From an uncultured Oscillospiraceae bacterium (lineage in GTDB: Bacteria; Bacillota; Clostridia; UMGS1883), in NCBI GenBank assembly GCA_964442035.1, contig CAYTWZ010000002.1, positions 2,211-31,173 on the forward strand: DNA of 28,963 bases. The letters are read 5' to 3'. Positions within the stretch are counted from its first letter, which is position 1; the number at the start of each line of letters is the position of its first letter. A program made the position numbers and the translations under genes. Below, piece after piece: positions 830-28,963 of the stretch. The notes under the pieces were generated by a model, which searched no databases, was not told where the DNA came from, and was given only the letters and a program-made list of their open reading frames with translations.

Positions 830-2200
830 ATGATTGAAAAGCTTAAGGGTCTGTACAAGCAGTATCGGGAGCTTATTGCATATGTTATCGTTGGGGGAAT
901 GACTACAGCGGTCAATCTGGCGGTGTATTGGCTGGACAAGGAAATACTGGGCATCAGCCGCGATCCCAATGTGGTGATCGCGTGGATCGCATCGGTGATA
1001 TTTGCTTATTTTACAAATGCGCTGATCGTTTTCCGCAGCAAAAATACCGGCAGGATAAAGGAGTTTTTAAGGTTTGTGAGCAGCCGTTTGGCGTCGCTGG
1101 CGCTGGAGCTTGTGCTGATGAAGGTGTGCAATGACTTTATCGGTCTAGGAGAATGGTTGTCAAAGTACATTGTGGCAGTTGCTGTAATAGTCGCCAATTA
1201 TGTGTTGAGCAAGCTGTGGGTCTTTGCCAAACGGGAGACGGGGACTAAAAAAATGGGAAGCGCGGAAGATAAGGGCGTTATTCTTACAAAAAGCTGGGTG
1301 GTTTGCGCTCTGGCTTTTGTCTGCTGCGCACTTTGGGGCAGCGCCTTCCCTTGTGTAAAGATCGGCTACAGCCTGTTTGAAATATCGGCCTCCCACGTTG
1401 CGTCGCAGGTGCTTTTTGCCGGTGTGCGTTTCACTTTGGCGGGGGTGATGACCGTTATTATAGCCAGTATAGGGCAAAAACGACTTGTTTACCCCAAAAA
1501 CGCCGGAGAGGTAAGGGGAGTATTTAAGCTTTGTCTTTTTCAGACAGTTATACAGTATATTTTCTTTTACATAGGACTTGCCAGAACAGACGGGGTGAAA
1601 AGCTCCATCATTGAGGCATCCAACGTTTTTGTAGCCATACTTATTGCGGCGCTTGTATTTAAGATCGAAAAGCTGACAGCGGTCAAGGTGATAGGCTGCA
1701 TTGTGGGCTTTGCCGGAGTTGTGCTGATAAACTTAGGCAGCGGCGGCTTTGACGCCAGCATGAGCCTGCTGGGCGAGGGATGTATTTTCCTGTCTACGTT
1801 TTCCTATGCAATTTCCTCTGTGGTAATGAAGTCTTACTCCCAAAAATACGATACCGTGATGATGAGCGGGTGGCAGTTCCTTTTGGGCGGAGTGATACTT
1901 ACCTTGGCCGGACTTGCTTTTGGGGGAGGACTGCCGGTGGTATCATCTCAGGGACTGGCTATGCTTTTTTATCTGGCCTTTGTGTCGGCGGCGGCTTATT
2001 CACTTTGGGCGGTCCTGCTCAAGTACAATTCCGTGTCCAGAGTGTGCGTGTACGGCTTTATGAATCCTATATGCGGAGTTCTGCTTTCCACCTTGCTGCT
2101 TAATGAAAGGGGAAGCTTCGGACTTAAGGGACTTGTATCGCTGGCACTGGTTTGTATCGGCATATACATCGTAAACCGTCAGGAAGCAAAATTATGTTGA
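830..2200 (+). CDS. Fused GtrA-like domain and EamA/DMT-family transporter (10-TM permease)
   Basis: The first ~140 aa resemble a GtrA-family 4-TM protein (YVIVGGMTTAVNLAVYW...ANYVLSKLWVF). The rest resembles a duplicated EamA transporter. The frame is open throughout. The start is ATG 830 (GAGGT 10 nt upstream) or ATG 821. An internal ATG at 1253 with GGGGA 8 nt upstream could also start a stand-alone EamA product. Confidence 0.75.
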   Translation: MIEKLKGLYKQYRELIAYVIVGGMTTAVNLAVYWLDKEILGISRDPNVVIAWIASVIFAYFTNALIVFRSKNTGRIKEFLRFVSSRLASLALELVLMKVCNDFIGLGEWLSKYIVAVAVIVANYVLSKLWVFAKRETGTKKMGSAEDKGVILTKSWVVCALAFVCCALWGSAFPCVKIGYSLFEISASHVASQVLFAGVRFTLAGVMTVIIASIGQKRLVYPKNAGEVRGVFKLCLFQTVIQYIFFYIGLARTDGVKSSIIEASNVFVAILIAALVFKIEKLTAVKVIGCIVGFAGVVLINLGSGGFDASMSLLGEGCIFLSTFSYAISSVVMKSYSQKYDTVMMSGWQFLLGGVILTLAGLAFGGGLPVVSSQGLAMLFYLAFVSAAAYSLWAVLLKYNSVSRVCVYGFMNPICGVLLSTLLLNERGSFGLKGLVSLALVCIGIYIVNRQEAKLC

Positions 2201-2224
2201 CATTGGCGCGTTTTGGTGTATAAT
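2197..2224 (+). promoter_or_regulatory. Sigma-A promoter of the BY-kinase/phosphatase operon
   Basis: TTGACA (2197-2202, overlapping the TGA stop of the previous gene), a 16-nt spacer, and TATAAT (2219-2224). This leaves a ~140-nt 5' UTR. Confidence 0.6.
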
Positions 2225-3675: not shown

Positions 3676-3688
3676 AGTGAGGTACACT

Positions 3689-4417
3689 ATGGACTATAAG
3701 CTGATTGATTTTCATACACATATTCTGCCCGGCATTGACGATGGAAGCAAAAATGCGGAAACGTCGGTCAAAATGCTCAAAAGACTGGAAGAACAGGGTG
3801 TAAGCGATGTTGTACTAAGCTCCCACTTTTACGCCTCCCAGAACAGCATTGAGGAATTTGCACTCCGGCGAGAAAAAAGCCTCGGCCGTCTTTTGGAAGA
3901 GCTTGATAAGACTCCCGTAAATATCAGGCTTCACCTTGGGGCGGAGATATTGTTCATGGATTACATTGACCGGGTAGAGGGCCTTAGTGAGCTTGCCATA
4001 GGCAAAACCAAATATATTCTGTTGGAGATGCCCTTTGTCAAGTGGAGCGAAAGGATGCTGGGAACAGTCTACAAGGTCATAGGCAACGGCTACATTCCTG
4101 TTATTGCCCACTTTGAGCGCTACATTCCCATACAGGGAAAGCTGGATTATATATATGAGCTAAAACGTATGGGCTGCATACTTCAGATGAATGCCGGCAA
4201 TTTTAAAGGCTTTTTCCGGAAGGGGAAGGCGTTGAAGTTTTTTGAAGATAATACTGCATCGCTTTTAGGAACAGACTGCCACAATCTGGACAGCCGACCT
4301 CCCGAGCTGAAGGCGGCCTATGAAGCAATAGGCCAGAAGCTTGGGGAAGATGAACTTCGGCGCATAAGCGCTGTAGGGGAAAAAATCCTCGAAAATTCCC
4401 GGACAGTGTATAACTAA
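3689..4417 (+). CDS. PHP-family protein-tyrosine phosphatase (CpsB/YwqE type)
   Basis: The N-terminal sequence is LIDFHTHILPGIDDG, with SSHFY, HFERY and GTDCHN metal-site motifs. I prefer ATG 3689 (GTGAGGT upstream) over GTG 3677. Confidence 0.85.
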   Translation: MDYKLIDFHTHILPGIDDGSKNAETSVKMLKRLEEQGVSDVVLSSHFYASQNSIEEFALRREKSLGRLLEELDKTPVNIRLHLGAEILFMDYIDRVEGLSELAIGKTKYILLEMPFVKWSERMLGTVYKVIGNGYIPVIAHFERYIPIQGKLDYIYELKRMGCILQMNAGNFKGFFRKGKALKFFEDNTASLLGTDCHNLDSRPPELKAAYEAIGQKLGEDELRRISAVGEKILENSRTVYN

Positions 4418-4544
4418 ACGAAAGATGTCCCCCGTTGGCGGGCGATCCTTTCGTTTTCGGGGAGATCAATCTCCCACCGAAAACGCCCCATGACGGGCTT
4501 TCAGCCCTTATTGAACTAAAAACAGGAGAACATTCGGTGGGAGA
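4409..4544 (+). promoter_or_regulatory. Conserved structured intercistronic element, copy A (candidate attenuator or cis-regulatory RNA)
   Basis: 4409-4513 aligns with 25391-25499, including identical 20-nt and 19-nt blocks. Pairings are P1 4416-4424/4448-4456, hairpin 4452-4466/4470-4485, and hairpin 4495-4507 followed by TTATTG. There is also a perfect 12-nt complement between 4470-4481 and 4533-4544. Confidence 0.55.
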
Positions 4545-13775: not shown

Positions 13776-16700
13776 TTATTTGCTTACTGACGTCAATGCG
13801 CATGAGGATGAGCCTGAGTACGTGCCGCCGGTCACTATTCCGTATGGCTCTTTCCCCGTGAAAGCGCCACCTGTTACGCTCCCTCCGTAATTTAATGTGT
13901 ATGAGCCGCTTTTGATTTCAGGTGTTGATATAAATACCCATGCGTATGCTTTTGACGGTACATATGTCACAATTTCATCCCCGCTTGAATTTGTTAGCTT
14001 GAACGCCTTACCCGCTGATTGTGATGAAAAGCCGCCTGAACCGCCCCACATACCGCTGCCGGAGGAACTTGACGAAGTCACAACGTAATACTGCTTCGCG
14101 CTGTCGGGAGTTATCGCCATATCGGATGAACCTGCGCCAATTACAGTACCTCCTGTAATTGAAAGTGTGTCGCCGTTGTTATCGCCTATGTCAAACACGC
14201 CGTTCCCGCCGCTTGTGGGGCCGTTTACAAGAAGCGTACCGCCCGAAATTAGAGCGCTGCCGTTGCTGTCAAAGCCATCGCCCTCTGCTTCGATATAGAC
14301 CAGTCCGCCGGATATTTCAACATATCCGTATGTCGACGAATCCTCACCGCCCCAGTTGGGACCGCTGTTCCAGCCTTGATTGCCGCCGTTCCAGCCTTGA
14401 TTGCCGCCCGGCCCCGCTAAAAGCTCAACTGACAAAGCGGAAACGGTATCAATGTCATATGCGCTGTCTGTCGGCTTGTCGCCTGCCGCGTTTACACCGT
14501 CGTCAGAGGAAACGATTCTTGTTTCACCGCCTAAAACATATATATTTGCGGCTTCTATGCCTTCATAGCTCTTTGTAATATTTATATCGGCGTTATCGCT
14601 TATATAAAGATAGCTGTCGCCGTGTATCCCATCGTCGCCTGTGGCGGCGGTTATGCTTCCGCCGATTATGCGCACAGTATGGTTTGAATGAACGGCGTCA
14701 TCATAGGTGTTTATATTGAAAGTGCCGCCACTGATATAAACAAGGTTGCCGCCCTTTACGCCCTTACAGCTGCTCGCCGCCTCGGGATTGTTTGCCGAAA
14801 CGGTCTGGGGCGCACCGCCGTATGCGGTCAAATCAAATGTGCCGCCGGAAATATTTGTTATGTTCTCGCTTTGTATACAATCCTGCTGGGAATTTACAGT
14901 GATATTGCCGTCTGTAACAACAACATTTCCGGTCCCGCACTGTATTCCGTCCTCGCTACAGGTTATGTCAAGAGTTCCTCCGTTGATATCAATTTCACCC
15001 TCTACATAGGCGAGAACCGTTGCTCCGTCTGTGTCGTATATTACCTCATTTACTTGAATTCCCTCCAAGGCTTTGGTGATCGTTATATTTGCGCCGCTAC
15101 CTATTGTAATGTTTTTTACCGCTTTGATTCCGTCCTCACCGGCCGACGCGACAATTGTGCCGCCTGTGATCGCCACACAGCCATCGCCCTCGGCAGGCGT
15201 GCCACTTGTTAACGTCGTGTCCTCAAGGTATGCAATGCTCGAAGCATTAGCCTTGATAGCTTCACCCGCGGCGTTGATCGTTATGTCGCCGCCAGTGATC
15301 GTGAGAAGAGTATCAGCTTGTATGCCGTCCCCGTTTGATACAGTGCCGTCCGTGCCTGTTGTTGTTTTTGAGGTTATATTTATTGTGCCGCCGTTTATCG
15401 TAACAGAACCGCCGGAAACGTATTCATTTGTCAGCGCGTCAATTTCAGGATCCTGATCGGACTTGATTCCGTCTCCTCCGGAAACAACCGTTATCGAATT
15501 GTTTTTCTTTGTGATTTTTACGGATTGGTCACCCTTTATGCCGTTGTTTGCGGCAGTAACATTTAAATCGCAGACGCCAATTTCGATGTCGTTCTTACAG
15601 CGTATGCCGTTCCCGTAATCGGATATTGCGTTAAGCGTTCCCTCACCCTTTATTGTAAGGTCATTCTTGCTGTAAATTGCTGTTGTATCCCCGTCCGATG
15701 AAGCTGATCTGAATGTGCTTTCGTTTTCTGTGGGAACAAGTGTTACCGTTCCCTTTAAACCGTCAAACGCGTTCCCCGTTGTGCTTGTTACGCTTACACC
15801 GTCAAGATTGACGGTGATTAAATCTGTCTTTTCGGAGGAATTAACTATTATCTGTCCATCGTTTAATGTGCCCTCAACGGTATATTCTCCCGCCGCCGTA
15901 ATTGTAACGGCAGTTCCAGATACGGTTACATTTTCAATGCCATCGGCATTCACGCTGTCACCCATAAGATGTATTATTCCGTCACCCGCGGAAATTACGG
16001 GATCCTGTGGAGATTCCTCCTCAGTCGCTTTGGTGGTGACGGTAACAGTGATATCGCCTGTTATCTTGGTTATTCTGTATGTATTTTCCCCAAGCTCGGA
16101 GGGCAGCTTTAGATTTTTGTAATTTGTTGACGGGGTCACTTCAACAGATTCGATCTCGTAGCCCTCATCCGCGGTAATCTTAAAATTCACCTGTCCGTTG
16201 CCGGAGGTATCGATTTCGCCGGTGTCGCCGCTTCGCGCGTATGCCTCTGTAACAAACTGCTCATCGCCTGTAAACACCTGCGTGTCAGACACGGCTATTG
16301 ATGCGTGGGAATCGGTCTCAAATGTCGCTTTAAAGCCCTCCGCTGTCGTTGCCTTGGTGGTGACGGTAACAGTGATATCGCCTGTTATCTTGGTTATTCT
16401 GTATGTATTTTCCCCAAGCTCGGAGGGCAGCTTTAGATTTTTGTAATTTGTTGACGGGGTCACTTCAACAGATTCGATCTCGTAGCCCTCATCCGCGGTA
16501 ATCTTAAAATTCACCTGTCCGTTGCCGGAGGTATCGATTTCGCCGGTGTCGCCGCTTCGCGCGTATGCCTCTGTAACAAACTGCTCATCGCCTGTAAACA
16601 CCTGCGTGTCAGACACGGCTATTGATGCGTGGGAATCGGTTTCAAATGTTGCTTTAAAGCCCTCCACAGGAACAAACACATCACTTAGCGGCTCAAGGGT

Positions 16701-22054: not shown

Positions 22055-24451
22055 TCAATCCTCCAATATCTCGTCCACACACATATCCGCCAGCTCACGG
22101 GCGTATTCTTCACAGTACCCTTGGCTGGTTATATTTATGGAAGAGAAACCCTCCGATGGAGTCAGCAGTACCCAGCCCTTGTCAAAGCTCAGTTTTATAC
22201 CGTCGGTCAGATCCATAGGCTGGCTTTGATGACGGCTGTATATTTTGTTCATAGCTTGGGAGGTTTCGGCGCAGTCTACACCGGTGTGTATCATGTGGGT
22301 CTCGGGCAGACGGGCAAGAAGCTCGGACAATGAAGCGTTTTCGCTTTTCATAAAGTCAATCAGCTTGATCAGCGCGCCCACCGCATCAAAGGCGTAGATA
22401 AACTGGTCATACAGCATGGGGTCATCGGATTTGGTCAGCTCGCGCATAAGCTCCGGCGGAGAATTACGGGTGCGTACCACTACAGCACCGTATTTTTCAG
22501 CCAAAAGCTCAACTCCCGAAGGCGCTGATATCGGAACGTAGATTTTGGCGCCCCTGTGGGTATGCATTACAATCATAGCGGACAGAAGAGTGTATATATC
22601 ACGGCTGATTATTCTCCCGCTAATATCGATGAGGGTCAGTTCCTGACAGGACGGGTCGATAACAGCTCCCAGATCCGCGCCTTCTTCCTTTACGGCCTGG
22701 GCGATCTCATGAGGGCCTTTGTCAGAGGTCTCCACATGGCAGTTGAGATCATTGCCGGCGCTTTTCAGCAGACGCTTTGCCCAGTCGGAGCTGCCTCCTA
22801 CCAGCAACTTGTAGCCGAGGCTTTGCTTTTTAGTGGAGTTGATAAGGTTTTTGAGATAAAACAGCTTGTATTCAAAAAGGTACTCCGCATCCTTAATGTT
22901 TTCGCTGCTCCCCCGGGAAAAGTCCTCCAGTCGAAAGCTGCTTTTAAGCCTGTTCATCAGCTCGGACTGCGGGTCTGCACCGTTGGGACCTATGAGCTTG
23001 ATTTCTCCGTAGTCAGCTCCTCCCCGGGTATATACGTTTACCGCCGCACCGCCCCACAGCCGATGAAAGCGGACTCCGCTTCGGCTTACTGGAAGAGGCT
23101 GTTCCCCAAAGTCAAAGATTTTTGCTCCTGTGGAGAGCACTCCGCCGATGAAGGCGGATTTCAGCATTGCCGCCGCCGGTGAGCCGCTGTCGGATACGCC
23201 TACGCCGCAGCCATCCGCTGCTGTGCCAAAGGCTGCACCAAGGAGGGTCATTGTTTCGGGAGTTATTTCGCTGCCAAGCTCTCCCTGTACTCCGGCAGAG
23301 CTCCATATCCGTCCTCCCCCTACGCTACCCCATATAAGGTTGGAATGCTGCACGGTATCCGGAGGAAGCTCCTTATGTGGCCATATACGGACACCGGGCT
23401 TTACGGCACAGTTTTCACCTACCACGCTGCCGCTGCCTATCACTGCCTGCTCGTATACGGCGCTCCCGCGTTTAAGGACAGCTTCGCGGTCTATTACCGC
23501 ACCTCTAAGCTGAGCGTTTTCCTCCAGTCTGCATCCGTCAAGGGCAATGCCCCGCTTGATGCCGGATCCGGCACAGAGAGTGACCCCGCGGCCTATTACG
23601 CTGTAGGGCTCTACTCTGGAACCACGTAGGATACGGCTGCGCCCTCCGATAAATGCCGGCGGGCGCAGTACGGCTCCCTGCTGTATTTCGGCCCCGCTTT
23701 CAACCCAGATGCCCTCACTGTATTCCTCCGGCATGTTCAGCGCGGTTTTCCGATCAAGTATATCCCCGTGACAGCGGCGGTAGTCCCCAAGGCTCCCGAT
23801 GTTGCACCAGTATCCGCCGTGGGGCATACCGTATATACCGCGTTTGTCATTAAGCAAAACCGGAAATATGTCTCGTATCAGGTCAGTAAAAATTCCCTCG
23901 GGTATCAGTGTCAGCAGCTTAGGCGAGAGCACTCCCACTCCGCAGCTTATATATGAGGATGCAACAAGCCCCCAGTCCGTACTTTCGAACAGCCTGTTTA
24001 TCCGTCCTCCTTCTCCGATGGTCATTGTCGCCCGGTGAGGATATGGGGAGGCGGGTGCCAGCGCAATGGAGGCCAATGCTTTGCGGCTTTTGTGGAAACG
24101 AATAAGAGACGTAATGTCCATGTCCGTTATCACCGAGCCGCTCATTGCAACAAAGTCCCCATCTACAAAGTCCCAGGCGTTTTTTAACGCTCCGGCAGTA
24201 CCCAAGGGTGTATCTTCATTAAAATACGTCAGTCTAACTCCTAAGGCCGTACCGTCACCGAAAAATTCGCGTATTTTGCCTGCCATGTACCCTTCTGTTA
24301 CGGCAATTTCAGTTATGGCGTGCTTCTTCAGTAGCTTTATACAGTGCTCCATTATGGGCGCACCCATAATATTGAGCATAGGCTTTGGCCTGTCACAGGT
24401 GAGCGGCCTAAGCCGCGTGCCCTCGCCGCCGGCCAGAATTATAGCTTTCAC
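22055..24451 (-). CDS. Sugar-phosphate nucleotidyltransferase (GlmU/ManC-like with LbH domain) fused to a phosphohexomutase-like domain
   Basis: The N-terminal motif is LAGGEGTRLRPLT..PKP. Hexapeptide-repeat segments follow, then a four-subdomain PGM/PMM-like C-terminal half. The GTG start has AAGGGGGA 7 nt upstream. Confidence 0.8.
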   Translation of the reverse strand: MKAIILAGGEGTRLRPLTCDRPKPMLNIMGAPIMEHCIKLLKKHAITEIAVTEGYMAGKIREFFGDGTALGVRLTYFNEDTPLGTAGALKNAWDFVDGDFVAMSGSVITDMDITSLIRFHKSRKALASIALAPASPYPHRATMTIGEGGRINRLFESTDWGLVASSYISCGVGVLSPKLLTLIPEGIFTDLIRDIFPVLLNDKRGIYGMPHGGYWCNIGSLGDYRRCHGDILDRKTALNMPEEYSEGIWVESGAEIQQGAVLRPPAFIGGRSRILRGSRVEPYSVIGRGVTLCAGSGIKRGIALDGCRLEENAQLRGAVIDREAVLKRGSAVYEQAVIGSGSVVGENCAVKPGVRIWPHKELPPDTVQHSNLIWGSVGGGRIWSSAGVQGELGSEITPETMTLLGAAFGTAADGCGVGVSDSGSPAAAMLKSAFIGGVLSTGAKIFDFGEQPLPVSRSGVRFHRLWGGAAVNVYTRGGADYGEIKLIGPNGADPQSELMNRLKSSFRLEDFSRGSSENIKDAEYLFEYKLFYLKNLINSTKKQSLGYKLLVGGSSDWAKRLLKSAGNDLNCHVETSDKGPHEIAQAVKEEGADLGAVIDPSCQELTLIDISGRIISRDIYTLLSAMIVMHTHRGAKIYVPISAPSGVELLAEKYGAVVVRTRNSPPELMRELTKSDDPMLYDQFIYAFDAVGALIKLIDFMKSENASLSELLARLPETHMIHTGVDCAETSQAMNKIYSRHQSQPMDLTDGIKLSFDKGWVLLTPSEGFSSINITSQGYCEEYARELADMCVDEILED

Positions 24452-24475
24452 CGTTGTTTCCCCCTTTTGTTTTCA

Positions 24476-24646
24476 GAAAACGCTGATTGATTCTAAAATG
24501 CTGATTGGCGGGAAAATTTTTCTCGCAGTAAGGCAAAAAGCGCATGATTACTTGCTGTATTATGGGCTTCTTTAACCGAACTGCGGGGGAAATAACCGTC
24601 AAGCAGCGTTTTAAGCCGTAGACGTGAATTAATCAGAGCTTCCTTG
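24476..24646 (-). repeat. Long-form copy (R2) of the imperfect-palindromic intergenic element family
   Basis: The reverse complement aligns end to end with 27572-27740. Its arms carry GCTGATT x2 (24482-24488, 24500-24506) and AAGCAG/AATCAG (24601-24606, 24630-24635) in inverted orientation. It ends 24 nt before the GTG of the nucleotidyltransferase gene. Confidence 0.6.
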
Positions 24647-24796
24647 ATATTATTTGCCGGGAGAAAAATCTTATTCCAGGAAAACTACGGATCCATACAT
24701 TTGATATAGTTCGGTTCCATCCATGCGATTTTTGCTTTAACTTTTTTGCCCGCAATCAAAAATACAAATAATACAAAAAAAATTACAAGATTGTTC

Positions 24797-24825
24797 TTGA
24801 CAATCATATGACCGTGTGATATAAT
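24797..24825 (+). promoter_or_regulatory. Sigma-A promoter of the HTH-NfeD-flotillin operon
   Basis: TTGACA (24797-24802), a 17-nt spacer, and an extended -10 TGaTATAAT (TATAAT at 24820-24825). AATCATAT occurs twice around it (24802-24809, 24823-24830). Confidence 0.65.
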
Positions 24826-24852
24826 CATATCATAAGCAAAGAGGGTGATCAG

Positions 24853-25395
24853 ATGTATGTGCTTCCCGGAACAAATATTGAAGTAGGGGAGCTGTCCTTT
24901 GACAGCGTTAATTCGCTGCTGAATTCAATTTTTCTCACAGGAGGACTGGTGCTTAGTCAGGTGGCAGGAATGACTGACTGTGCTCCACATGTGGTGCAGA
25001 ATTGGGTCAAAAGAGGGTTTGTTTCGCCGCCGGTGAACAAGAAATACAGCAAGCGGCAGTTTTGCAGAATAGCCTTTATCAACTTTTTGAAGGATGTGAT
25101 GCAGATCGACAAGGTCACGGCGCTGATGGAATATATTAATGGGGCGCTGGATGATGAAAGCGATGATCTGGTGGATGACTGTACGCTGTACTGCTACTTT
25201 GCTCAGGTAATAGGACAGCTGACGGACTTCCGCCGGGACACCATAGAGTCTGTGGTGGAAAAGTCGGTCTCCGGAGGAGGAGACAGCTATATCCAAGTCA
25301 GGCTCAAGGCCACACTTATAGTTATGGCCACCTCTTACGGAGCGGCAATGCTTCGAAGCAGGGTCAATTTGCTTATAAGTCAGTTGGATATATAA
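24853..25395 (+). CDS. Putative MerR-like HTH protein of the DUF1836 (YkrK-like) type
   Basis: The segment LSQVAGMTDCAPHVVQNWVKRGFVSPPVNKKYSKRQFCRIAFINFLKD fits the pattern I remember for DUF1836 proteins (t..mi.nyvK......P..KkYs..h......i..LK). The SD is GAGGG, 7 nt upstream of the ATG. Confidence 0.5.
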   Translation: MYVLPGTNIEVGELSFDSVNSLLNSIFLTGGLVLSQVAGMTDCAPHVVQNWVKRGFVSPPVNKKYSKRQFCRIAFINFLKDVMQIDKVTALMEYINGALDDESDDLVDDCTLYCYFAQVIGQLTDFRRDTIESVVEKSVSGGGDSYIQVRLKATLIVMATSYGAAMLRSRVNLLISQLDI

Positions 25396-25499
25396 CTAAA
25401 CGAAAGATGTTCCCGACTATATGGGCGGTGAGCGACCCTTTCGTTTTTCGGTGGGATATCAATCTCGAAACGTTGAAAGAGGGCTTTCAGCCCTTATTG
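25391..25499 (+). promoter_or_regulatory. Conserved structured intercistronic element, copy B
   Basis: It aligns with 4409-4513. P1 is 25398-25406/25438-25446. The central hairpin carries the conserved GATATCAATCTC apex. GGGCTTTCAGCCCTTATTG lies at 25481-25499. Confidence 0.55.
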
Positions 25500-25523
25500 G
25501 AAAAAAAGGGGGTCAAGGGGATA

Positions 25524-26162
25524 ATGTTCATTGTGAATTGGTGGAATGCCATGACAGCGGCTCAGCACGGGTTTTTGTATGTAGCGGTTCCGGCTACTTT
25601 AGTACTGGTCATTCAGACACTGTTGCTGATGTTTGGCATAGGCGACAGTGACGGTGATGTGCCGGACGGGGATATTCCCGATGTGGATGTTGGCGATGGA
25701 AATTTTCAGGCGGTGGAGGATTTCTCCAACTGCGATGTTTCCGGTGACTTGGACGGTGATCTGAGGATATTTACGGTCAGGGGTATGGTTGCGTTTTTCT
25801 CGGTGTTTGGCTGGTCAGGCGCGGCAATACTCGGAGGCGGACTTCCGCTGTGGTTTTCCGTTGTGGGGGCTGTAGTGGCGGGAGCTGCCGCAATGCTGGC
25901 GGTGGCGTTTATCGTCAAGTTTGCCCTTAATCTTCAGCAGTCGGGCAATATCAATCCCCGCAATGCCGTGGGTAAGTCCGGAACGGTTTATATAACTGTT
26001 CCTCCGGCTCGAAGCGGCAGCGGAAAGGTCAATCTTGTGCTTCAGGAGCGCTACTCCGAAATGGAAGCTGTTACCGATGGAGAACAGCCAATTTCGCCCG
26101 GTCGTGAAGTAACTGTAGTTGGAACTACAACAATGGGAACACTTATAGTTAGGGAAAAGTAA
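25524..26162 (+). CDS. NfeD/YqiJ-like membrane protein (acidic loop, TM helices, C-terminal OB-fold)
   Basis: It has TM helices flanking a D/G-rich loop and a C-terminal NfeD-like beta domain (GKSGTVYITV...GKVNLVL...VTVVG). It sits in the typical position upstream of flotillin. I prefer ATG 25524 to ATG 25407, because 25407 would translate the conserved non-coding element. Confidence 0.7.
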   Translation: MFIVNWWNAMTAAQHGFLYVAVPATLVLVIQTLLLMFGIGDSDGDVPDGDIPDVDVGDGNFQAVEDFSNCDVSGDLDGDLRIFTVRGMVAFFSVFGWSGAAILGGGLPLWFSVVGAVVAGAAAMLAVAFIVKFALNLQQSGNINPRNAVGKSGTVYITVPPARSGSGKVNLVLQERYSEMEAVTDGEQPISPGREVTVVGTTTMGTLIVREK

Positions 26163-27561: not shown

Positions 27562-27571
27562 AGCTGTAACC

Positions 27572-27740
27572 TAAGGAAACGCTGAATAATTTACGCCTAC
27601 GGTTTAAAACAAACCTTGGCGATTAATTCACCGGCAGCTCGGTTAAAAAGCCGAGCTGCCGCAAGTATTCATGTGCCTTTTGCCTTGCCTCGAAAAAATA
27701 TTCTTTGCCAATCAGCATTTTAAAATTAAACAACGCTTCA
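27572..27740 (+). repeat. Long-form copy (R3) of the imperfect-palindromic intergenic element family
   Basis: It starts 11 nt after the flotillin stop. It aligns with the reverse complement of 24476-24646 and with both arms of 2230-2323. It contains a perfect 11-bp hairpin, CGGCAGCTCGG (27632-27642) / CCGAGCTGCCG (27651-27661). Confidence 0.6.
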
Positions 27741-27749
27741 TTTAATATC

Positions 27750-27777
27750 TTGACAGGTCATCAAAATGTGATATAAT
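27750..27777 (+). promoter_or_regulatory. Sigma-A promoter of the LRR protein gene
   Basis: TTGACA (27750-27755), a 16-nt spacer, and an extended -10 TGaTATAAT (TATAAT at 27772-27777). Confidence 0.6.
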
Positions 27778-27863: not shown

Positions 27864-28963
27864 ATGAGCAAAGGAAAGCTTTTGCCGATACTGATGAGTC
27901 TGACAATGTTGGGCTCATCGGTCAGTATCCCCGTTTCCGCGGCGGAATACACCGACAATCAGATAGCGGACACGGTAGCCCGTGTAGCTGTGACGGAGAT
28001 TTTTGCCACGGATGTGAGCGAACCCTCTGAGGATGAATTTATTGCTCCTGCCGAAGATGTAGAAGAGAACGAGGCGGAAAAAGCGTCACAGGAGGATGCT
28101 TATGTCATGACAGACAGCGATGTTAAACTGTTCGCGGATTCATTGACATATGAAAACCTGCAATACGAAGTAAATGACGGCAATATTACAATAGTGGGCT
28201 GCAATGACGGTGTGGAAAGTATTGATATTCCCGCAACTATCGATGGGGAAGCAGTTACGAGTATTTCCGCTTACGCTTTCAGCGGACATTCAGATTTAAA
28301 AAAGCTCACCATACCGGAGGGAGTGACATATCTCGGGGCTTACTTTTTGACGGGAACAGCCGTAGAGAGGCTGACCATCCCCTCCACAGTGACGGAATCC
28401 GGGGGCAGCATCAACGGCGCGTTGGCCGGTTCCGCGGTTACAGAGCTGACCTTTGCGCCGGGCACGGTAAAAATTCCGAATAACATTTGCCGCAGCGATT
28501 CGCAGGGCAGTCTGCTTGAGATAGTCAATTTGCCGGACGGAGTGGAGACTATCGGAGATTGTGCTTTTACAAACGCCAAGAGCCTGACAAGGTGTGACCT
28601 CCCGGAGTCCGTTGTTACGATAGGAAATAACGCTTTTCAGAACTGCGTCAGTCTGGACGGCGAGATAAATATTCCCGCCAGTGTAAAAACTATCGGAGAT
28701 TACGCATTTGATGGCTGCAAAAGTATTACAAGCGTAAAAACCAACCTGAACACAAGCTCCGAGTGGGTAGGGACGGATAAAGTTTCCTTTTCAGCAACAA
28801 TTGGAAAGATGGCTTTCCGGAACTGCACTTCAATGAACGGTTTTGAGCTTGCCGCCAGCGTGAAAACGCTGAATAACTATGCGTTCGAGGGCTGCTCATC
28901 CCTGAGCGAGCTCACCATACCGGAGGGAGTGACATATCTCGGGGCTTACTTTTTGACGGGAAC
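27864..28963 (+). CDS. BspA-type leucine-rich-repeat surface protein (5' partial, runs off the window)
   Basis: This ORF is not in the ORF track because it has no stop inside the window; I translated it by hand. It begins with the signal peptide MSKGKLLPILMSLTMLGSSVSIPVSAAEY. Repeated IP..V..IG..AF..C..L units follow, as in the LRR_5 type. The frame is open to the last base. Confidence 0.75.
   Translation, partial: MSKGKLLPILMSLTMLGSSVSIPVSAAEYTDNQIADTVARVAVTEIFATDVSEPSEDEFIAPAEDVEENEAEKASQEDAYVMTDSDVKLFADSLTYENLQYEVNDGNITIVGCNDGVESIDIPATIDGEAVTSISAYAFSGHSDLKKLTIPEGVTYLGAYFLTGTAVERLTIPSTVTESGGSINGALAGSAVTELTFAPGTVKIPNNICRSDSQGSLLEIVNLPDGVETIGDCAFTNAKSLTRCDLPESVVTIGNNAFQNCVSLDGEINIPASVKTIGDYAFDGCKSITSVKTNLNTSSEWVGTDKVSFSATIGKMAFRNCTSMNGFELAASVKTLNNYAFEGCSSLSELTIPEGVTYLGAYFLTG
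28303..28963 (+). repeat. Long-period direct repeat inside the LRR gene
   Basis: The 55 nt AGCTCACCATACCGGAGGGAGTGACATATCTCGGGGCTTACTTTTTGACGGGAAC at 28303-28357 recur exactly at 28909-28963. The offset is 606 nt, or 202 codons. The second copy is cut by the window end. Confidence 0.85.

Follow-up and report, generated by a model that had tools for sequence, protein, structure and literature searches.

Small palindromic repeats are well known from Neisseria, enterobacteria, pneumococci and the Bacillus cereus group, the last of which harbors bcr1-type repeats, transcribed MITE-like sequences of about 155 nt that lie in intergenic regions of these Firmicutes and are accompanied by a short target duplication. 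To our knowledge, such repeats have hardly been described for the uncultured Oscillospiraceae, which dominate many gut and digester communities. According to the literature, bacterial MITEs are elements under 200 bp with terminal inverted repeats (TIRs) and TA termini, transcripts that form long stem-loops, and sites found both filled and empty; they are non-coding and range from about 50 to 800 bp in size, usually under 200 bp (PMC2229807, PMC11602168). Among the described families, Correia elements come in two sizes, 107 and 155 bp, the difference lying in an internal stretch of 50 bp, the ERIC/IRU (RU-1) sequences of enterobacteria are imperfect palindromes of ~127 bp with TA termini and no known transposase, and the pneumococcal RUP is a ~107-bp Firmicute MITE with a TA target that is thought to be mobilised in trans by IS630-Spn1 (PMC2229807).

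In this study, an intergenic segment (R2) was examined in a stretch of 28,963 nt from an uncultured Oscillospiraceae bacterium (contig CAYTWZ010000002.1; hereafter, the window), the nearest protein homologues of which carry Oscillospiraceae labels. These labels, and that of a MAG with a further copy, agree with the assignment to Clostridia assumed when the segment was first described. R2 probably represents a copy of a small non-autonomous transposon-derived intergenic repeat family, that is, a bacterial MITE, of an uncultured Oscillospiraceae-type lineage. The family is previously undescribed and is an ordinary kind of element; literature searches retrieved neither a match to its box sequences nor a MITE described for Oscillospiraceae.

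Sequence Organization of the Repeat

R2 occupies positions 24475–24644 of the window, is read on the minus strand and has a core of 170 nt (nhmmer E-value, 3e-56). An earlier sequence-only reading of this DNA had delimited the segment at 24476–24646, which was right to within 1–2 bases, and had aligned it end to end with a copy at 27572–27740 and, through both of its arms, with a shorter one at 2230–2323. Both matches were recovered, and the two copies are now placed at 27574–27742 (R3; plus strand, long form, core 169 nt) and 2232–2324 (R1; plus strand, short form, core 93 nt, the central ~70 nt being absent). The repeat search in the window revealed two inverted blocks shared by R2 and R3, namely 24478–24555 against 27661–27738 (78 nt, 77% complementary) and 24571–24645 against 27573–27647 (75 nt, 79% complementary). 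In the same search, 2282–2333 and 2306–2345 matched both R2 ends, and 2225–2276 matched 27567–27618.

Local alignment scores were expressed as z-scores, with 500 dinucleotide shuffles as the control. The values were 44 for R2/R3, 11 for R2/R1 and 58 for R2 and a further copy, R0, and the pairwise alignments of copies scored 8–58 sd over shuffles as a whole. In the nhmmer search, the long copies reached E-values of 1e-53 to 1e-56, and the short copy X15, found in another assembly, 2e-23. The sequence-only reading had named the lack of any other copy, combined with alignments at the level of shuffles, as the outcome that would speak against it; instead, further copies were found and the scores lie far above those of shuffles. 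The 170-base segment thus genuinely belongs to a repeat family. Identity among the copies ranges from 67% to 82%, with 67–79% for the window's own copies; R2 and Y168, a copy from another assembly, are 82% identical, which exceeds the mutual identities of the window copies.

R2 is an imperfect palindrome, as had been proposed: alignment with its own reverse complement gave a z-score of 13.6, with 5.4 for R3 and 4.6 for R0, and palindromy was not significant in the short copies (R1, z 0.3; X15, z 2.0). According to the alignment of the copies, arm A of R2 spans 24597–24644 and arm B 24475–24510 (minus being the element strand for both), and the right arm equals the inverse of the left arm plus an extra 11 nt. 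Pairing of the arms over all copies gave 170 complementary positions, 70 mismatches and 26 gaps; the arms are ~64% complementary over ~50 nt.

The earlier description of two GCTGATT boxes per arm, spaced by ~18–20 nt, agrees with the boxes of R2 arm B, which are read directly on the plus strand at 24482–24488 and 24500–24506, 18 nt apart. These two boxes are candidate binding sites for a protein, possibly a transposase. A pattern search revealed that the box pattern is almost confined to copies of the repeat, and ~100 nt outside the boxes are also conserved among the copies. The 11-nt insert is present in arm A only (24615–24625, minus strand; GCCGTAGACGT on the plus and ACGTCTACGGC on the minus strand). 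With the consensus rCGyCyrCGGy, it is kept in six of the six copies with DNA and sets the polarity of the element, a role that had been attributed to an extra ~10–12 nt in one arm.

In the alignment of all copies, the arm A consensus runs AGGrAgC.CTGAaTAATTy, followed by the insert and TTAAAACnnnCyTGrCGG, and that of arm B, CGCCAATCAGCrTTTTAGAATyAATCAGnGCTTCCT, corresponds to arm A inverted and lacking the insert. The core ends of the copies read AGGrA...TyCCT, and the element ends, in consensus form, AGGrAGCnCTGAtTAATTy...GCTGATTGG. TIRs, which in MITEs measure at least 10–15 bp, are present as AGGrAGC.CTGAtTAATTy and its inverse, with a weak signal in R1 and X15. At some positions, all copies show the same difference between the two arms, e.g., GCTG[A/C]TTG, with C in arm A and A in arm B; thus, the ends of the master element would already have been unequal, as in insertion sequences.

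The copies differ in core length (93–170 nt). The long forms (R2, R3, R0 and Y168) have a core of ~170 nt and the short forms (R1 and X15) of ~93–100 nt, the central ~70 nt being found in the former and absent from the latter. In the alignments, the boundaries at which this central block is deleted coincide among the forms.

Six-frame translation of the copies revealed no coding capacity with a conserved start or ribosome-binding site (RBS); like MITEs, the element is small and non-coding. A small ORF on the reverse strand (MLIGGK...) was rejected as a gene: it has no start in R0 and R1 and no RBS, and its frame is lost in the short forms. The same translation, used as a probe against the protein collection, led to two further copies. 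A role of arm A as a donor of stop codons in three frames was likewise rejected, the stops not being consistent among the copies.

At 27631–27661, R3 contains a perfect hairpin of 11–12 bp (CCGGCAGCTCGG / GCCGAGCTGCCG). At this place, the other long copies have a non-complementary, GCCCAAGATACAGC-like right half, and the five or six differences are all toward complementarity in R3. This suggests that the quasi-palindrome underwent templated correction, or that a stem was selected for downstream of the SPFH gene.

Copies of the Repeat and Their Gene Contexts

In total, seven copies were found, six of them with DNA and one seen as a spurious ORF. Four (R0–R3) lie within ~31 kb of a single genome; the remaining three come from other assemblies. 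R1 is situated between a promoter and the Wzz/tyrosine-kinase gene and ends 43 nt ahead of the ATG at 2368. The gene directly downstream of R2 (22055–24451, minus strand) encodes an NTP_transferase-hexapeptide-phosphomannomutase fusion of 798 aa; R2 ends 23–24 nt before its GTG at 24451, as against 24 nt counted previously. R3 starts 12 nt past the stop (27561) of the SPFH/Band_7 gene and lies 5′ of the LRR_5 (BspA-type) surface-protein gene. R0, a long copy that is 84% identical to R2 over 161 nt, was found at ~2120–2287 of a Logan contig (L026) that carries the window's Wzz protein and reaches 2.3 kb left of the window. It starts 2 bases past the stop of a DUF4901/SLH gene and ends just before a hairpin and T-run, which are read as the terminator of that gene.

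The scan of 185,579 species-representative genomes with the arm-B pattern gave 24 loci, with a true copy only in an Oscillospiraceae MAG (CAZIBK010000093; contig L015). This short copy, X15, separates a gene for a Liv-type substrate-binding protein from a permease gene. The long copy Y168 (L168, GCA_037193645.1) overlaps the last codons of a biotin carboxylase gene (accC): the ORF continues for ~20 nt within arm A, where it terminates at a TAA that belongs to the element (L168:628–646, minus strand). Since the stop codon sits within the element, the insertion of Y168 has replaced the original end of accC. The seventh copy is a spurious ORF (P0241), identified by comparing the reverse-strand translation with the protein collection. 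The genes adjoining the copies (Wzz-kinase, NTP-transferase, LRR_5 protein, TrmO, Liv permease and accC) are functionally unrelated.

The metagenome scan with the arm-A pattern gave no matches, and that with a shorter arm-B pattern gave, among the matches listed (at least 120), chance matches covering the pattern only. BLASTN against plasmids and phages found no match to the element; in viral contigs, one chance match in coding DNA was obtained, and two further scans were empty.

Base 1 of the window is the base right after R0, and another Logan contig (L001) starts at window position 24547, the center of R2. These contig starts fit assembler breaks at palindromes or repeats, or coincidence.

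A second, unrelated intergenic repeat of ~115 nt is found at 4409–4521 and 25391–25507 (73% identical over 124 nt; E-value, 5e-12). Its copies start at the stop codon of the preceding gene or directly beside it (CpsB-like, 3677–4417; DUF1836, 24853–25395), and each precedes an ORF of ~250 aa without a Pfam hit, the two ORFs being dissimilar. Several hairpins are predicted for this repeat, which has no match in Rfam. For one of the two ORFs (25407–26162), the listed start falls within the repeat; the true start is probably further downstream, since the homologues in relatives are 205–222 aa long. Two duplications within genes were also observed, namely a near-perfect tandem duplication of 300 nt (16024–16647; period, 324 nt) inside the gene for a 1085-aa Cthe_2159-domain protein, and an exact 55-nt repeat (28303–28357 and 28909–28963) whose copies are spaced by 606 nt within the LRR_5 (BspA-type) gene. 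In both of these surface-protein genes, internal repeats have expanded recently.

Flanking Sequences and Empty Sites

TA is found on both flanks of four of the six copies with DNA (R0, R1, R3 and X15), as read from the sequence at 2230–2231 and 2325–2326 for R1 and at 27572–27573 and 27743–27744 for R3. Y168 has TA on one flank and GA on the other, and the flanks of R2 are CA and GA, not TA. Alignment of the copies revealed that flanking sequence is not duplicated along with the element.

The X15 site was found both filled and empty. The filled site of L015 reads GAGAAC-TA-[AGGAACC...GCTTACC]-TA-AAAAG. In three related contigs (L154–L156), in which the neighboring substrate-binding protein (SBP) is 97% identical, the site reads GAGAAC-TG-AAAAATCAG and the element is absent; it is likewise absent from two contigs with an 83% identical SBP (L158 and L162). 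The intergenic region between the SBP and permease genes measures 280 nt in L015 versus 181 nt in the contigs with the 97% identical SBP, with the flanks intact and ~100 nt missing at the element. The empty junction carries a single TG, and the comparison concerns one pair of sites, with a nearby indel of 3–4 nt and TG versus TA. A duplication of TA is thus supported, but not clean. The repeat is polymorphic for presence and absence.

In the same intergenic region (L015:3940–4075 and the corresponding region of L154–L162), two hairpins are strongly conserved, down to relatives with 83% protein identity. One consists of GGGCTGCCATG...CATGGCAGCTC followed by T-rich sequence, and the other of GCCCTTAAAATTTGCGG...CCGCAAATTTTAAGGG. 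They probably serve as an intercistronic terminator or stabiliser and thereby set how much binding protein is made relative to permease.

For R2 and R3, the intergenic DNA of relatives is too diverged for empty sites to be aligned, and only the length difference and the promoter block of the DUF1836 gene are usable. Relatives at 62–68% protein identity, i.e., at the level of a family, keep the divergent layout of the DUF1836 and NTP-transferase genes as well as this promoter block, and their intergenic region measures 136–149 nt versus 401 nt in the window. No copies of the element were detected in 91 kb from these relatives or in 81 kb from relatives of the L015 organism. The possibility that R2 and R3 are the ends of a composite transposon around the DUF1836 gene, the 251-aa ORF and the SPFH gene was rejected, since relatives have the same three genes at the same place without the repeats. 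The window contains no transposase genes, and no RAYT gene was seen in the sequence examined.

Promoters and Orientation of the Copies

In the intergenic region that holds R2, including the space between R2 and the GTG, the strict scan revealed no minus-strand promoter. A relaxed scan gave only weak candidates (8/12), all of them upstream of R2. The nearest, TGGAAT-18-AATAAT (24649–24678, minus strand, 8/12), abuts arm A. Since the 23–24 nt before the GTG contain no promoter and the weak candidates all lie upstream of the element, a location of R2 in the 5′ UTR is plausible, and the whole of R2 would belong to the 5′ UTR if the site at 24649–24678 were used. The sequence-only reading had seen no convincing promoter between R2 and the gene and had placed R2 in the 5′ UTR; the scans agree on the former, and the latter, with weak 8/12 candidates upstream, is plausible only. 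A promoter-donor role of the arms was rejected, as the only candidates are weak (8/12) and all lie outside the element.

On the R1 side, a 12/12 promoter is found at 2197–2224 (plus strand), and R1 starts 7 nt after its −10 hexamer; on the R3 side, R3 ends 7 nt before the −35 hexamer of the 12/12 promoter of the LRR_5 gene (27750–27777, plus strand). From these positions, R1 and R2 would lie at the very start of transcripts, and R0, R3, X15 and Y168 would be transcribed as 3′ or intercistronic sequence.

The promoter of the DUF1836/MerR-like gene (24797–24825, 12/12 with TG) and its leader (24790–24852) are nearly invariant among relatives at 62–68% protein identity (L148, L149 and L150). The spacer of this promoter holds a palindrome, ATCATATGACCGTGTGAT, that runs into the −10 hexamer and looks like a MerR-type autoregulatory operator.

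All six copies with DNA are oriented with local transcription, which would pass through arm A first and arm B last; R2, the sole copy on the minus strand, is next to a minus-strand gene. The notion that the asymmetric insertion points each copy toward the gene downstream of it, drawn from three copies, was extended by three independent ones to six of six. By chance, such co-orientation is expected with a probability of 1/64 for the six copies, and of 1/8 for the three found after the hypothesis had been put forward. Possible causes are counter-selection of one orientation, a role at the RNA level, or small numbers.

RNA Structure

Both strands of the copies were folded, a check that had been suggested along with the first description of the repeat. 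R2 folds at −51.9 kcal/mol (z −5.0 versus shuffles) and R3 with z −3.4; the short copy R1 folds no better than shuffles (z −0.6). The stable folds of the long copies follow from the inverted repeat, and in four of the five copies the fold of the antisense strand is at least as stable as that of the sense strand. RNAalifold returned a penalising covariation term (+1.28), with double changes in 4 of 35 pairs and many pairs broken. Mismatches between the arms comprise 16 sense-compatible wobbles versus 24 antisense-compatible ones, and 30 transversions. The 3-bp mini-stem of the 11-nt insert varies only through one-sided, G–U-compatible wobble transitions. There is no sign of RNA-level selection for pairing. 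The idea that the long stem is important as RNA or as a cruciform was not borne out, given that the folding is a consequence of the inverted repeat and that neither covariation nor a wobble bias was observed.

The search of Rfam 15 gave no match at gathering thresholds, and permissive E-values yielded chance-level hits only (best E-value, 0.48). None of the hallmarks of a structured cis-regulatory RNA, that is, membership in a curated family, covariation, a link to a gene family and conservation at orthologous sites, was found for the repeat.

Origin and Possible Roles of the Repeat

Several lines of evidence converge on a decaying MITE family: multiple dispersed copies, which occur in unrelated gene contexts and in other assemblies, the filled/empty pair with the accompanying presence/absence polymorphism, the absence of the element from orthologous sites, and the lack of both an RNA-family match and covariation. 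The same observations uphold the MITE-like interpretation of the long and short forms that had been offered at the outset. The master element would have been an asymmetric imperfect palindrome, with two box-like motifs in arm A split by the 11-nt insert, a ~70-nt center that was kept in the long (~170 nt) and deleted in the short (~95–100 nt) forms, and an inverted arm B with two GCTGATT boxes. A transposase supplied in trans, its class being suggested by the insertion sites, would bind the boxes of both arms; given the TA flanks, mobilisation in trans by an IS630-type enzyme is proposed, with insertion at TA in AT-rich intergenic DNA and duplication of the TA, as IS630/Tc1-mariner-type enzymes do. 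The copies, 67–82% identical, would be old and decaying, and would have survived at spots of low harm, i.e., after stops, between operon genes or at the start of a transcript, where they may be co-transcribed with their neighbors and fold into a long hairpin. R2 would have inserted close to the promoter of the nucleotidyltransferase gene or in its leader, and is most likely a passenger in the 5′ UTR of that gene, with transcription running through it, and may affect the stability or processing of the mRNA. Several findings count against parts of this scenario: the low identity of the copies against recent mobility, the co-orientation of six of six copies with local transcription against random insertion, and the lack of a partner transposase or of an IS with matching ends in the window against a MITE. 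The small number of copies, their weak terminal complementarity in the short forms, the non-TA flanks of R2 and of one side of Y168, and the small differences beside the filled/empty junction also weigh against it.

The co-orientation would be accounted for if a MITE-derived element had become a module selected for its orientation in RNA, its hairpin and bulged 11-nt insert serving RNase III/RNase E processing, mRNA stability or translation; overall, we consider this account unlikely. It would make the repeat a 5′-UTR stem at R1 and R2 and a 3′-UTR or intercistronic stem at R0, R3, X15 and Y168, maintained or tolerated in transcription units solely in sense orientation, and it fits the location of all copies in or at the edge of such units, with arm A upstream in each. 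It also draws on the low folding energies of R2 and R3 relative to shuffles, and on the insert, which is present in all copies and whose mini-stem changes only through G–U-compatible transitions. Orientation-dependent RNA effects are known for ERIC. They have also been documented for Correia/NEMIS elements, where they involve RNase III (PMC2229807). For the present repeat, however, the pairs are often broken and do not covary, sense wobbles are not in excess (16 vs. 24), the antisense strand folds at least as well, and the short copy R1 has no unusual fold. Moreover, the element is absent from the orthologous sites of relatives, and is thus not required at those sites, and six orientations are too few for certainty.

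The decaying MITE family is also to be preferred over two further explanations. That the spacer was multiplied locally by segmental duplication or gene conversion, or that a REP/REPIN palindrome was spread by a RAYT-type enzyme without target duplication, appears highly improbable: the clustering of four copies in ~31 kb, the lack of a transposase in the window and the lack of TA at the R2 flanks would suit such an origin, but copies exist in two or three other assemblies in unrelated contexts, Y168 is closer to R2 than the window copies are to one another, flanks were not duplicated with the element, the filled/empty site involves TA, and the arms consist of direct boxes rather than short GC-rich REP hairpins. 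We give slightly less credence still to an operator array in which the GCTGATT boxes bind a dimeric or tetrameric regulator, e.g., the adjacent MerR/DUF1836-like protein, that co-regulates the surface-polysaccharide and surface-protein genes next to R1, R2 and R3. The DUF1836 gene with its promoter palindrome and the NTP-transferase gene are retained in relatives that lack the element, and that conserved palindrome differs from the element in sequence, although the regulator gene is the divergent neighbor of R2, the boxes are regularly spaced in inverted arms, and only a few bases separate R1, R2 and R3 from promoter hexamers. No coherent regulon emerges from R0 between a stop and a terminator, X15 between Liv genes and Y168 at the end of accC, and ~100 nt beyond the boxes are conserved as well. 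The position of several copies after stops, together with presence or absence at near-identical loci, disfavors an operator array.

Elements of this kind may break short-read assemblies, can endow the transcripts of surface-structure genes with long hairpins in the 5′ or 3′ UTR, and seed spurious ORF calls, which is how two new copies were found. If upheld, the orientation bias would offer a handle on RNA-level effects of MITEs in the Oscillospiraceae group, and if the repeat does act as an RNA module, R1 and R2 would tune surface-polysaccharide genes in an uncultured Oscillospiraceae lineage. Without the bias, the repeat is useful for annotation and strain typing and holds no new principle.

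Comparison with Known Elements

The architecture of the element agrees with the published definition of bacterial MITEs (PMC2229807, PMC11602168). In design, the element is closest to Correia/NEMIS, ERIC and RUP and is a member of none, as its host and the structure of its arms are different; the resemblance was judged from architecture. The bcr1 repeats differ from it in sequence and in their target (TTTAT). Identity with REP/REPIN was rejected, as the arms are AT-rich direct boxes, not self-palindromic units, and TA flanks are present. Identity with integron attC sites was also rejected: no RYYYAAC/GTTRRRY core sites occur at the ends (AGGrAGC... and ...GCTTCCT), and the neighbors are housekeeping and surface genes with their own promoters, not a promoterless cassette array.

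The element shares with Correia/NEMIS a small, non-coding, intergenic nature, inverted arms, TA termini, filled and empty sites and a stem-loop that is often co-transcribed (PMC2229807). Long and short forms arise in both through an internal segment, ~70 nt here versus 50 bp in Correia. The likeness, which was assessed by description, is architectural, with no apparent sequence relation and a Firmicute host. Unlike Correia elements, the present repeat has much less perfect arms (~64% complementary over ~50 nt), which hold two direct GCTGATT boxes each, with the 11-nt insert in one arm only, and no IHF site or outward promoter was identified in it. All of its known copies take one orientation relative to transcription, and a handful of copies is known versus hundreds of Correia elements.

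Like the element, ERIC sequences are imperfect palindromes with shorter and longer variants, produced by internal deletions or insertions, and lie in transcribed intergenic regions (PMC2229807). As seen from its description, ERIC is unrelated in sequence and differs in how boxes are arranged in its arms. Both orientations occur among ERIC copies. For RUP, in contrast to the present repeat, a matching IS is known and no long form is described (PMC2229807); RUP, from a Firmicute host as well, inserts at TA, a mechanism that the TA flanks suggest for the element.
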